Below are positions 30,301 to 36,300 of a stretch of DNA of 64,000 nt, in pieces. The stretch covers positions 31,065 through 95,064 of the forward strand of contig CAZLGL010000008.1 in assembly GCA_964559315.1 (NCBI GenBank), written 5' to 3'. The stretch comes from an uncultured Coxiellaceae bacterium (GTDB lineage: Bacteria > Pseudomonadota > Gammaproteobacteria > DASZBR01). Made by a program: the position numbers. The stretch's first letter is position 1; each line of letters begins with the position of its first letter.

Positions 30301-33300
30301 CAATTAGCTGAAATTGCTAAAAAAGCAAATCCGGCATGGGAAAAAGATAAACACCCGGCAACGCGAACGTTTCAAGCATTACGGATTTTTATTAATCAAG
30401 AATTAGATGCGCTAAGCACGGCCTTACCTCAGTGCTTAAGCCTTTTAAAAAAAGGCGGTCGATTAGCTGTGATCAGTTTTCACTCGCTAGAAGATCGAAT
30501 TGTTAAGCAGTTCATACAAGAAGAAATTCACGGTGATGCCGTATTACGTCAACTTCCGATTCAAGATCGAGAGTTGAAAAAAACACTACGCACTGTCGGC
30601 CGAGCGATTCGACCGTCTGAAGTAGAAATGAAAGAAAACCCGCGCTCACGAAGCGCCATTTTACGAATTGTGGAGAAATTAGCATGAATGCAGCTGCTCG
30701 AGCACTAACGCAAGGCATTGTTGTTGCAACCTCACCCGCGCAATTACGCGCACTCGCTTTGTCACGACAAGCGATGATGACACTCGCGTTACTTTTTTCG
30801 ATTGTCATTTCAGCGTTAAGCATCATCACCCTTTCCGATTGCAATCGAAAAATGGTGGGAGAATTAGCGAGCCTTCAACAAGATCGCAATCAAATTCAAA
30901 CTCAATATGGACAATTATTATTGGAAAAAAATACGTGGGTTGCACCCTCTCGTGTTGAAAAATCAGCAAAACAAGATGAAGGTTTAGTTTTCCCTAACGC
31001 ACAGCAGATCGTATACATTCATCCATGACCTCACCACAAGCCGATTTTTTTCATTTTCGGCGACTGGTGGTTGTTGTGGTGCTGTTGGGAATTGTTATTT
31101 CAGCTTTAGTTTCTCGCCTGGTTGATTTAAGTATCATCAAGCGTCATTTCCTGCAAACACAATGGACACAGCGCGCCATTCGCGAAATTACCATTCCTGC
31201 GTATCGCGGAATGATTACCGATAGAAATGGTGAACCCCTTGCGATTAGCACACCCGTTTATGCAGCATGGGTAGATCCGACTAAAATTACTTTAACTAAA
31301 GATCAATTATTTTCATTATCAAAATTACTTTCCATAGAACCCACTGAAATTAAAAATCAAATCGAAGTCGAAAAAACTAAAAACAAACGTTTTATCTATC
31401 TTAAGCGAGATCTCTCCCCGGCCACTGCCACAGAAATTCAAAATTTAGCTATCCAAGGTTTGTCACTCGAACGACAATATCAACGCTTTTATCCCGACGC
31501 CGAAGCGTCATCTCAATTAGTCGGATTTACCAATATTGATGATATTGGACAAGACGGACTGGAACTGGAATTTAATGATTGGCTTTCGGGCACACCTGGA
31601 TTGAAAAAAATTATCCAAGATCGATACGGCAATGAAGTATCCAATTTAGGAACGATACACGAACCGATTCCCGGTCATAATCTCATGCTGAGCATTGATA
31701 ATCGTCTTCAATATTTGGCCTATCATGAATTAGACAAAGGCGTAAAAGAATTTGGCGCGCACGATGGTTCCATCATTATTTTAGATGTAAAAACCGGGGA
31801 AATTCTTGCGATGGCAAATGCACCTTCGTTTAATCCCAATCGACGCCCCTCGGGAGAAAGTGGTGTTTATCGTAATCATGCAGTGACAGATTTATTTGAA
31901 CCCGGTTCAACCATGAAAACCATTGCAATGGCAACTGCACTTTCTTCAGGAAAATACCATCCTAATTCGCTAGTCGATACTAATCCAGGTTATTGGACTG
32001 TCGATGGCAAAAAAATTGATGACGATGGATATAACAATGGCGTTATTACGTTGACACGCGTACTTGAAGTATCGAGTAATGTGGGAATTTCAAAAACCAT
32101 TTTATCACTTCCTGCACATATGTTTTTAAATATGGTCCATGCATTTGGATTTACTCAGCCAACAGGCATTGGTTTTCCGGGAGAAAGCGATGGGCATATT
32201 GCACCCAATGCAGAGCGCTCGCCGTTTGTCTTAGCCACCATGACATTTGGGTATGGCATTTCCGTCAATTTGTTACAGCTCGCTCATGCGTATCAAATTA
32301 TTGCAAATGATGGCGAAGACATTCCATTAAGTTTATTTGTGGTCGATACCCCACCCAAAGCAAAAGAAGTTATTGCGCCTAAAGTCGCTGCGGAATTACG
32401 CACCATGCTGGAATCGGTACTCGACAAAGGTGGTGGTACTGCCGTTGCAGCTCGGGTTCCCAATTATGTTATCTCTGGAAAAACAGGCACCACACGTATA
32501 TTAGGTCCTCATGGATATGAGAAAGATCATCATAACGGCGTATTCGTCGGTATGGCGCCCGCGAATAATCCTCGATTAGTTATCGCGGTGATCTTGCGCG
32601 ATCCCACTAAAAAGGCGTATTTTGGCGGCGATATTGCTGGCCCTGTTTTTGCTAAAGTCATGGGCGACGCCTTGAGGATATTAAATGTACCCCCCGATAA
32701 CACATCAACCTAAAATTATTGGTGTCACTGGAACAAACGGTAAAACGTCTATTACACATTTTATTGCACTTGCGTTAAAACAAGCGGGATTAAAAACAGG
32801 TGTGATTGGCACCGTTGGGAATGGGTTAATTGATCATCTTAAAACTGCACGCCTTACAACACCCAGCCCTGATGAATATAAAAAATTAATGGATTTTTTT
32901 AGTGGTGAAAAAACGGATGTGGTTGCAGTGGAAGCTTCTTCACATGGCTTAGTGCAAAACCGATTAAAAGGCACTGATTTCTATGCAGGAATTTTTACTA
33001 ATCTGACGCAAGATCATCTGGATTATCATAAAACCATGGAAGACTATGCTGCCGCAAAATTAAAATTATTTACAGAATTTAAGCCGCTCTATTCTATTAT
33101 TAATATAGATGATCCTACGGGTTTAAAATTTGCTCAGCAAATCAATTCATCTTCTATTTATTGCACATCCACTGAAATTCAACACAATCCATTAGGTTTG
33201 CCCTTGATTTACGCGACGGATATTACGCCAGATGAAACGGGTACCACTGCAAATATTCACACACCCTGGGGAAACGGAAAATTACACACCCCTCTTTTGG

Positions 33301-36300
33301 GAAAATTTAATATCAGTAATTTGCTGGCAGTGATTAGCCTGCTCGGCATCATGGACACCAACATTGAACATATTTTAAATTATGTTGCTGAATTAAAAAC
33401 AGTCACGGGTCGTATGCAAGTGATTCCATTTCCGAATCATGCACGCGTTGTCATTGATTATGCACACACCCCCGATGCATTAGAAAAAACATTAAAAACC
33501 CTGCGCGAACATTGTCAGGGAAATATTTGGTGTGTATTTGGTTGCGGGGGTGATCGTGATAAAAACAAACGCCCCCAAATGGGAAGAATTGCAGAAAGAT
33601 TCGCTGATTTTGTTATTTTAACGGATGACAATCCGCGTACAGAAAATCCGTTAGAAATTATCGCAGAAATTAAAGCAGGTTTTGAAAATAAAAAAGCCGT
33701 TATCACAGAACATGATCGCCGCCGCGCGATTAAGCATGCGATTGACTGCGCGAAACCGAATGATGTGATTTTAATTGCAGGAAAAGGACATGAAACCTAT
33801 CAAGAGATTGGTCATGAACGTTTTCCATTTAGTGATGAGATGGAAGTAAAACTTTTATTAGTATAAGGGCGGCGCTTGCGACGCCCACTGTGAAATAAGG
33901 AACCTGAACGATGCTACTTTGGCTAACCCACTGGCTCTCCCATTATTATCGTTTTTTTAATGTATTTGATTATTTAACCTTACGAACCATTTTAGGTGCA
34001 CTCACCGCTCTCGCGATTTCATTATGCATTGGCCCCATGATGATTCGTCAATTATGTGAATATCAAATTGGTCAGGTGGTTAGAACTGACGGCCCCCAGT
34101 CTCATTTAAGTAAATCTGGCACTCCCACGATGGGCGGAACGTTAATTTTAATTGCCATCTCGTTGAGCACACTGTTGTGGGGCGATTTAGATAATAACTA
34201 TCTGTGGGTTACCTTACTTATTACATTAGGCTTTGGTGCCATTGGCTTTATTGATGATTACAAAAAATTGATCCTCAAAAACAGTAAGGGCTTAGCTGCT
34301 CGCTGGAAATATTTATTGCAATCTATCCTAGGATTTGGGGCAGCGATCTTTCTATATCACATGGGCACACAGCCTACTGACACACAGTTACTCATTCCCT
34401 TTCTTAAAAATATTTATATTGAACTGGGTGCATTTTATATTTTCTTTGTTTATTTGGTGATTGTCGGAAGCAGTAATGCGGTAAATTTAACCGATGGTTT
34501 AGATGGGTTAGCAATACTTCCGACAGTATTAGTCGGTGGCGCACTCGGCATTTTTGCATATCTCACAGGAAACATGACATTTGCGAAATATTTAGCCATT
34601 CCCTATGTCCCAGGCGCAGGAGAATTAACGGTATTTTGCGGAGCACTAGTAGGATCGGGCTTAGGCTTTTTGTGGTTTAACACTTACCCGGCGCAAGTAT
34701 TTATGGGCGATGTCGGTGCATTGGCATTAGGCGGAGCATTAGGTGTTATTGCAGTGATTGTGCGGCAAGAAATTGTTTTATTCTTAATGGGCGGTGTATT
34801 CGTATTAGAAACGGTTTCAGTAATTTTACAAGTCGCGTCATTTAAATTAACCGGAAAACGCATTTTTAAAATGGCGCCGATTCATCATCATTTCGAACTA
34901 AAAGGATGGCCAGAACCGCGTGTTATTGTACGTTTCTGGATTATTACGTTCATATTAGTATTGTGCGGGTTGGCAACACTGAAATTACGTTAATGTAAAA
35001 TTTAAGCAATAATACATATCTGAGAACCGCTCGCCTCGACATTTGAGTCCATTCCAACCCGATTTGCTGCTTCCGAATCTAAACTCTGTTCTGATGCAGG
35101 AAAAAACACGAACCAATCACCCGCTCGACTGATAGCATTATCACTGGCTTGAATAAAACGAACTGCACCCTCCCATTTTTCTCTTGCCACCTCAGCACTT
35201 AATTCTTCAACCCATTTCCGTGAAACTTCATCTCTGGGAAGATATTCTTCTTCTGTTCCAAGAGCAGGCAGAAGCATAAGAAGTTTCTTCGCTAAAAATT
35301 GTCGTCTTTCTAGCAATGCCGTTTTCCAGTGTTCATCAATCTTGTAACAATTCAGCTTTTCTAAAACAGGAAGCATATTCAGCATTCGCTCAAGCTCATC
35401 AGTATTGTTAAAATTCATCTCAAGGTGCTTTAGAGTGGACAAACTGCTTATAACGTTATGACTCATCTCTAAAAAATTACCCGTAATATGACTGCGGATA
35501 ATACTCATCTCCTGCAATCCTGAACATAGCTGAAGCAAATAGTGAAAAGTATCGAAAGGCATTCGTGAGTTTTTAAGCGCTAAACATGTCAATGGCACTG
35601 AAAAATCAGCATCAGGATGAGCATCACCAAGCATAATCTCGATGCAATCAAGCATGAGCTCTTTCAAATTTGGGCAACGCTTAAATAACCTAAAAAAATC
35701 TGCTTGAATGATCGTGCCACGACATAAAAAGAGTTTTGCTAAACACGCCAAATTTGCGGTAGAGTCCGTTGAAAGATTTAAAAATTGACCTAAATTTACA
35801 TCATTATAAGAATCAATGAGCAATTCTTTTAAATGGGGAAATTTTTGAGCAATACTGTGTAAATCGGGTCCATCTTTTTTCACAGTAACATACAATTTTA
35901 CAGTCTTTTCGCGGATAGAGGTTATCTTCCCATCCTCATCATACATCTCAGCGGTATCAAACACATGATGCTCCTATTAAAAAATGATGGCCAGACCCCG
36001 CGTTATTCTACGTTTGTGGATTATTAGGTTTATATTAGTATTATACGGGTTGGCCACATTAAAATTACGCAAAATTAGCTTATTTTTTTATCGCTATTTT
36101 CATAACCGAACAGCTGGGCTGGGGAAATTTATAGAATCATTCGCTATAGAACTAAGCAATTCATCCCACCCGGCATTATGAGACCCAAAAGCACTTTTTT
36201 GTTTTTTAATTTCTTGTATCAGATTTTTTTTAAATTCTTGCTCTACTTGCGGATCCTTACATTTAAGACTTGGCATAAGAAAAGTGTTTGCAAACAGCCT

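Follow-up and report, generated by a model that had tools for sequence, protein, structure and literature searches.

Mur ligases, which serve as antibiotic targets, are textbook enzymes of three domains, the first of which (domain 1) is regarded as the module that recognizes the uridine diphosphate (UDP) moiety of the substrate. The uracil recognition site of MurE from Mycobacterium tuberculosis is located in this domain (PMC3133487). Departures from the three-domain layout have been described among relatives of MurE: MurT, the ligase subunit of the lipid II amidotransferase MurT/GatD, comprises a middle and a C-terminal domain only and lacks the UDP-binding N-terminal domain (PMC6113224), and natural MurE-MurF fusions, as in Bordetella pertussis, indicate that Mur ligases tolerate rearrangement and may work as complexes (PMC10214165). 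The MurE homolog PAP11 of plants is a subunit of the plastid-encoded RNA polymerase. Our search of the literature recovered no description of a MurE that is truncated or lacks the N-domain. Here, we describe a murE gene that lacks the whole of domain 1, located in a 64,000-nucleotide stretch of DNA (hereafter, the window) from a bacterium labeled as an uncultured member of the Coxiellaceae (assembly GCA_964559315.1, contig CAZLGL010000008.1, positions 31,065 to 95,064 of the forward strand).

The gene occupies positions 32685–33866 of the window on the plus strand and encodes a two-domain Mur ligase of the meso-diaminopimelate (meso-DAP) type that comprises 393 amino acids (Pfam and NCBIfam). 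The central ATPase domain, Mur_ligase_M (PF08245), spans residues 14–219 (32724–33341, plus strand; E = 2e-51) and includes the P-loop G16-T-N-G-K-T21 (32730–32747, plus strand), which is invariant in 17 of the 17 sequences of the MurE alignment. The C-terminal amino-acid-binding domain, Mur_ligase_C (PF02875), spans residues 242–368 (33408–33788, plus strand; E = 1.8e-38) and includes the meso-DAP specificity determinant D315-N316-P317-R318, or DNPR motif (33627–33638, plus strand), equivalent to residues 413–416 of Escherichia coli MurE. These were the only two Pfam domains detected in the protein, with no match to the N-terminal domain PF01225, and NCBIfam MurE models aligned to it only from model position 81–100 onward (100–488 of 493 for NF001123 and 81–470 of 472 for TIGR01085). 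Its scores exceeded the cutoffs of the subfamily model TIGR01085 (472 versus 257 bits) and the equivalog NF001126 (437.5 versus 373) but not those of two other equivalogs (see below). Across domains 2 and 3 it shared 43% identity with E. coli MurE (phmmer E = 1.7e-97). The protein is a true MurE ortholog without the whole N-terminal UDP-binding domain. This agrees, in coordinates as in description, with the original prediction, made from the sequence alone, of a 393-amino-acid MurE that begins at the P-loop domain and has no N-terminal domain of about 100 residues.

When compared to canonical three-domain MurE (E. coli, 1E8C and 7B53; M. tuberculosis, 2WTZ and 2XJA), the window protein shares the P-loop, the residues for Mg and acyl-phosphate, the position of the carbamylated lysine, the contacts to the N-acetylmuramic acid (MurNAc)-peptide, the DNPR motif with its meso-DAP pocket, and the position of the gene after ftsI in the division and cell wall (dcw) cluster. 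What it lacks relative to the E. coli enzyme is domain 1 (approximately residues 1–88) and the linker helix to approximately residue 105, which together hold the uridine pocket and the diphosphate loop. MurT is a distant paralog that has a Cys4 zinc ribbon and, in partnership with the glutaminase GatD, uses lipid II as its substrate (PMC6085368, PMC6113224). Unlike MurT, the window protein has Mur_ligase_C and the DNPR motif, and its top matches, whether by structure or by sequence, are all MurE proteins; no gatD was present in the gene tables of the dcw regions of its relatives. The MurE part of the B. pertussis fusion (8F5D) is a structural match to our model, but that fusion gains domains (six in all), whereas here a domain has been lost and murE and murF lie apart on opposite strands. 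PAP11 matches the model by both structure and sequence, yet the window MurE, unlike PAP11, keeps its active-site residues and dcw context, and nothing suggests that it was recruited to another complex. The short MurE is thus a clear architectural exception, a known enzyme with a new domain layout.

The DNA upstream of murE encodes an intact ftsI (PBP3; 31025–32713, plus strand) with its STMK, SSN, and KTG motifs and complete PBP_dimer and Transpeptidase domains (Pfam). The 3′ end of ftsI overlaps the start of murE by 29 nucleotides (32685–32713, plus strand), such that the murE ATG is embedded in the ftsI codons for L-N-V-P-P-D, and a Shine-Dalgarno sequence read from the DNA as GAGGA (32674–32678, plus strand) lies within ftsI, 6 nucleotides before that ATG. 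To check for a hidden N-domain, all three forward frames of 32385–32746 were translated. The murE frame is closed upstream of the ATG by four stops in 180 nucleotides, one of them directly before the ATG; a second frame is likewise closed by stops; and the third is the intact C-terminus of FtsI, including SGKTGT, ending at 32713. A hidden or frameshifted N-domain in the upstream DNA is therefore ruled out. The original prediction had reached the same view from the intact ftsI C-terminus, its KTG motif, and the 29-nucleotide overlap, and the check for a frameshift that it proposed at about 32600–32700 revealed none, since all three frames were accounted for and the junction was the same in relatives. 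A promoter and terminator scan of 32300–34100 yielded chance-level results, which is consistent with co-transcription of murE with ftsI and mraY, and no RNA family was detected in an Rfam scan of the window.

The short architecture is shared by relatives. A homolog search of 5.8 billion proteins identified eight further short MurEs that, together with the window protein, comprise nine distinct orthologs of 393–401 amino acids (58–100% identity), drawn from NCBI, JGI, ENA, and Logan assemblies. Homologs P0002–P0008 (393–399 amino acids) are 68–86% identical and P0014 (401 amino acids) is 56–58% identical; one variant, P0007, occurs on 27 contigs. All nine start at the same point in the alignment, approximately nine residues before the P-loop strand, and two members carry a plain MurE annotation in GenBank. 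In five of five loci from relatives (L001, L004, L084, L085, and L086), the gene order is the same as in the window, namely mraZ-rsmH-ftsL-ftsI-short murE-mraY, with the short murE again overlapping ftsI by 29–32 nucleotides. A neighbor-joining tree of domains 2 and 3 placed the short MurEs in one clade beside full-length relatives, and because the clade is monophyletic, the simplest history is that domain 1 was lost once, in their common ancestor. Collectively, these observations indicate that the short form is the norm of a lineage and not an accident. The original prediction had anticipated a lineage norm if close relatives shared the form and were known to be functional; they do share it, and their function is predicted from sequence. 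Its implied kinship with Legionella and Coxiella did not find support. The closest named matches of the MurE were from metagenome-assembled genomes of Coxiella and Legionellaceae (48–49% identity), those of the MutS encoded in the window were from Oceanospirillales- and Cellvibrionales-type bacteria (64–65% identity), and the placement obtained from MutS went no further than unclassified Gammaproteobacteria.

Residues of the window MurE were mapped onto characterized enzymes through alignment to PDB sequences (1E8C and 2WTZ), and conservation was evaluated over 84 aligned MurEs. Residues R291, D315, N316, R318, G366, and E370 are invariant among the 84 sequences and correspond to E. coli R389, D413, N414, R416, G464, and E468, which form the meso-DAP pocket. 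K125 aligns with E. coli K224, the carbamylated lysine. The residues T58, T59, S85, and R93 are equivalent to T195, T196, S222, and R230 of M. tuberculosis MurE, which have been named as key substrate-site residues (reviewed in PMC6736417); across the 84 MurEs, conservation of these four and of K125 is complete or reaches at least 90%. The residues known to bind ATP and Mg, to support acyl-phosphate chemistry, to contact the MurNAc-dipeptide, and to recognize meso-DAP are thus all intact. An AlphaFold2 model of the short MurE was of high confidence (mean predicted local distance difference test, pLDDT, of 94.1; predicted TM-score, pTM, of 0.92), and its best match in the PDB was the product-bound (closed) form of E. 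coli MurE, 1E8C (TMq of 0.94; root-mean-square deviation of 1.9 Å over 388 columns).

Pairwise ratios of nonsynonymous to synonymous substitution (dN/dS; Nei-Gojobori) ranged from 0.09 to 0.21 in 15 of 15 comparisons among six short murE genes, with proportions of synonymous differences (pS) of 0.49–0.74, such that dS is near saturation and the ratios are approximate. Among genomes with called genes, the median dN/dS of murE was 0.146, compared to 0.112 for ftsI, 0.141 for rsmH, 0.082 for murF, and 0.045 for mraY. Rough as they are, such values exclude neutral decay of the short murE. Identity of domains 2 and 3 to those of outgroup MurEs was nearly equal for the short clade (49.4%) and its full-length sisters (51.0%), indicating that no acceleration in rate followed the loss of domain 1. 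Compensating changes in domains 2 and 3 were also looked for, and only three clade-specific substitutions were identified at otherwise conserved columns (Q66K, Y161T, and L281I). Residue 66 (32880–32882), situated a few residues past the T58-T59 substrate loop, is Gln in 63 of 69 full-length MurEs and Lys in seven of nine short MurEs. It is pure speculation that the positive charge of Lys66 might partly substitute for the lost diphosphate contacts.

The nearest full-length MurEs in the tree (P0009–P0013 and P0015, 469–486 amino acids; loci L087 and L088) are 53–58% identical to the short form over the shared domains and inform how domain 1 may have been lost. In L088, the same ftsI-murE overlap and start codon are present as in the short clade, with the homologous ATG positioned 12 nucleotides upstream of the called start in the same frame. 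The ATG with its GAGGAT context is also found in L001, L004, L084, L085, and L086, and the Shine-Dalgarno sequence is conserved as TTGAGGAT in five of five of these relatives. The presence of a homologous ATG in L088 shows that three ancestral features were retained, namely the start codon, the ribosome-binding site GAGGAT, and the ftsI overlap. The short genes run from the ftsI stop almost straight into K-I-I-G-V-T-G-T-N-G-K-T, which bounds a deletion on the 5′ side just past the ftsI stop and on the 3′ side immediately ahead of the P-loop's leading beta-strand. A few extra residues (...LKPHPFRVIAVTG) are retained in the short homolog P0014, possibly left over from the conserved linker motif F-Y-x-x-P-S. 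Domain 1 and the linker helix were thus removed by one clean in-frame deletion of approximately 75–100 codons, most simply in the common ancestor of the lineage. This deletion took essentially all domain-1 and linker-helix codons of murE that are not shared with ftsI and would have left murE translationally coupled to ftsI.

The sister MurEs retain a compact N-domain that is modeled with high confidence (AlphaFold2 pLDDT of ~97), and 475 columns of the full-length model align with 1E8C. However, this domain lacks the six-residue G-x-x-x-DG loop that approximately 90% of other MurEs conserve and is no longer detected by PF01225. In the one pair compared, it evolves faster and under weaker constraint, with an omega (the ratio of nonsynonymous to synonymous rates) of 0.37, versus 0.15 for domains 2 and 3. 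This suggests that dependence on domain 1 may have been reduced before the deletion, with the N-domain of the sisters representing a possible intermediate step. As in the window, murF is not next to murE in either L087 or L088. In L087, a PhdYeFM antitoxin/PIN toxin pair (7377–8059) lies between ftsI and the full-length murE, where the overlap is broken.

Genes for the neighboring steps of the pathway are intact. The mraY gene directly downstream of murE (33911–34993, plus strand) encodes a protein of 360 amino acids (Pfam), and an MltD-like lytic transglycosylase with SLT and LysM domains is encoded at 53510–55129. Since ftsI, mraY, and the lytic transglycosylase are intact, the organism makes and remodels peptidoglycan. 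Unlike at the canonical murE locus, murF is not adjacent to murE; it is absent from its usual place between murE and mraY in the window and likewise in L001, L084, L085, and L086. In the window it has been relocated approximately 5 kb upstream (26492–27787, minus strand; 431 amino acids from Met71 of the open reading frame (ORF); TIGR01143, 429 bits). The relocated MurF keeps PF01225 (36.7 bits) along with its middle and C-terminal domains, and because it keeps this UDP-binding N-domain, its substrate is most likely still UDP-MurNAc-tripeptide. A UDP-linked substrate for MurF in turn suggests that the short MurE acts on a UDP-linked precursor and not, as MurT does, on a lipid-linked one.

To determine whether the missing domain is encoded elsewhere, a hidden Markov model (HMM) built from 107 MurE N-domains was searched against the ORFs in all six frames of the window and of seven further loci (L001, L004, and L084–L088). 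In the 64-kb window and the five short-clade loci, the only matches were to MurF N-domains (E = 1e-11 to 1e-18), and no second murE was detected in the window or in any relative's locus examined; the same HMM does detect the N-domains of the full-length sister MurEs. This negative result is of limited strength, as it covers 64 kb of the window genome and approximately 20 kb per relative. We also searched a profile of the sister-lineage N-domain against the 5.8 billion proteins by word index and against 1.84 billion representatives exhaustively. No stand-alone N-domain of the short clade was present among the word-index matches or among the best 150 of the 10,382 exhaustive matches. In the short matches retrieved with this profile, the canonical G-x-x-x-DG(R) loop is present and the sequence mostly continues into the P-loop; they are therefore contig-end or frameshifted pieces of full-length genes. 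A small minus-strand ORF conserved after mraY (37653–38060; also in L001, L085, and L086) was considered as a replacement domain and rejected; it is helical-looking by sequence, is poorly conserved, and has no match in Pfam or to the N-domain HMM. The split partner envisaged in the original prediction was thus absent from the 64-kb window, the approximately 20 kb of each of the five loci, and the matches retrieved in both database searches.

We consider it probable that the gene encodes a functional, meso-DAP-adding MurE without domain 1 that has become fixed in an uncultured lineage of the Gammaproteobacteria. Of the possibilities named in the original prediction, a genuinely minimal MurE is supported by the nine-ortholog clade, the synteny in five loci, the purifying selection, and the kept active site. 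The short murE has been maintained by purifying selection since the deletion, and under this interpretation the enzyme would still add meso-DAP to a UDP-linked precursor, as the MurF N-domain implies. The substrate would be bound through contacts of domains 2 and 3 with the MurNAc-dipeptide, and either the enzyme would do without the uridine-diphosphate clamp, with some loss of affinity, or a partner would take the place of the clamp. Several points weigh against this interpretation. The N-terminal domain of MurC through MurF, of approximately 90 residues, recognizes the UDP moiety of the substrate and contacts its pyrophosphate (PMC6113224, PMC6085368), and we found no precedent in the literature for activity on a UDP-linked substrate without domain 1. 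All members of the short clade come from metagenome assemblies. NF001123, the best-matching full-length equivalog, scored below its cutoff (481 versus 586 bits), as did the equivalog NF001124 (427.3 versus 476), both shortfalls being attributable to the approximately 100 missing residues. To these may be added the approximate nature of the dN/dS ratios and the limited reach of the search for a partner. A more specific version, that the UDP clamp is not needed in vivo, either because the bare domain-2/3 enzyme suffices or because MurF or MurD holds the UDP end in a multi-enzyme complex, is put forward as a tentative and rather unlikely proposal.

A split gene, in which the UDP-binding domain is a separate small protein encoded elsewhere that joins the two-domain MurE non-covalently, would reconcile the short form with the importance attributed to domain 1 in UDP recognition. 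It would also be expected to leave domains 2 and 3 with almost no compensating substitutions, as observed, since the function would be supplied in trans, and the part of each genome searched was small. We nonetheless view it as unlikely, given that the N-domain HMM matched only MurF N-domains in the window and the five short-clade loci, that the database matches were pieces of full-length genes with none attributable to the clade (best 150 of 10,382), and that the locus has the form of a simple in-frame loss at the original position and not of a gene fission. The absence of domain 1 could alternatively reflect a change in function, such that the substrate of the ligase is no longer a nucleotide but, for instance, a recycled muropeptide or a precursor linked to lipid, and the MurE step is carried out by another enzyme or the pathway is reordered. 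Mur-ligase relatives without domain 1 do use UDP-free substrates, such as MurT on lipid II; in MurT, a UDP-binding domain has been described as not required and as one that would probably clash with the membrane (PMC6113224, PMC6085368), and murE is directly upstream of mraY, which encodes the membrane step. Yet the retention of PF01225 in MurF means that UDP-MurNAc-tripeptide is still expected, which disfavors a lipid-linked substrate by analogy with MurT. The gene is moreover an ortholog that holds its ancestral place in the dcw cluster, neither the substrate-contact nor the DNPR residues of its product have changed, the C-terminal domain of the protein belongs to Mur_ligase_C, and the relatives' loci examined revealed no second murE. 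A new function is accordingly, in our estimation, quite improbable.

Decay is a different matter, in that a pseudogene in a lineage losing peptidoglycan synthesis might well have lost approximately 100 codons, and other trimming is evident in the wider lineage (MutS without PF27441 and the sister MurE N-domain without its loop). However, nine diverged orthologs keep an intact reading frame, dN/dS (0.09–0.21) is comparable to that of ftsI and rsmH with synonymous sites near saturation, the catalytic residues are all invariant, and ftsI, mraY, murF, and the lytic transglycosylase are intact. The decaying gene that the original prediction had allowed for is rejected on the basis of conservation, purifying selection, and the kept active site, and we assign decay a very low probability. 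An artifact of sequencing, assembly, or gene calling near 32600–32700 has next to no probability, with nothing found in its favor, and is considered refuted, because the same junction, with an overlap of 29–32 nucleotides, is present in six sequences (the window and five loci from separate assemblies). One short variant is also found on 27 contigs, and the frames upstream comprise an intact FtsI C-terminus and two that are filled with stops.

A natural MurE has long existed without domain 1, given the near-saturation of synonymous sites and a protein identity within the clade as low as 58%. If the short MurE is functional, as we consider probable, the domain would be dispensable or replaceable. 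The protein would represent a ready-made minimal construct with which to evaluate the role of domain 1 in affinity, specificity, and complex formation, and inhibitors of the uracil or diphosphate pocket would be expected to miss some MurEs. Should it be true that MurF or MurD holds the UDP end, the short MurE would provide natural evidence for hand-over of substrate between Mur ligases. For annotation, a 393-amino-acid MurE adjoining ftsI should not be marked as a pseudogene in this lineage.

Other features of the window were also recorded. The 44-nucleotide spacer between murE and mraY (33867–33910) holds a GC-rich hairpin, GGGCGGCG-CTTG-CGACGCCC, that is not followed by a run of T. In relatives, this spacer is 13–19 nucleotides or the genes overlap, and in L004 the first possible start of mraY is 81 nucleotides away, so the window genome may be the only one with this hairpin. 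Two ORFs with response-regulator receiver domains (26110–26511 and 25587–26141, both minus strand) follow murF, with a 20-nucleotide overlap, and in the more distant relative L084 a MurF and a receiver domain are fused in a protein of 550 amino acids (2822–4474). This suggests a putative, conserved functional association of MurF with a phospho-receiver.

The MutS encoded in the window (22728–25121, minus strand) comprises 797 amino acids and lacks the C-terminal domain PF27441, which is carried by most gammaproteobacterial MutS proteins (approximately 850–870 amino acids). Its closest relatives (84–91% identity), apparently from the same genomes as the short-MurE clade, also lack PF27441. The loss of the MutS C-terminus would represent a second loss of a terminal domain and hints at a general trimming of proteins.

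The last ~90 nucleotides of mraY are present twice, at 34905–34993 and 35984–36075, with approximately 88% identity. The two copies flank a gene (35002–35964, minus strand) for a 320-amino-acid leucine-rich repeat (LRR) protein with an F-box/LRR-type match in Pfam, and no LRR gene was present between mraY and lgt in the close relatives L001, L004, L085, and L086. It looks as if the LRR gene was inserted into the 3′ end of mraY, duplicating or replacing that end. Also between mraY and lgt, and in the window genome only, is a gene for a pentapeptide-repeat protein of 506 amino acids (36100–37620, minus strand). Large ORFs without a Pfam match are located at 7980–9509, 9520–11547, 19987–21402, and 41064–42659. 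Together, the LRR and pentapeptide-repeat genes and these large ORFs resemble the effector-type cargo of host-associated bacteria.

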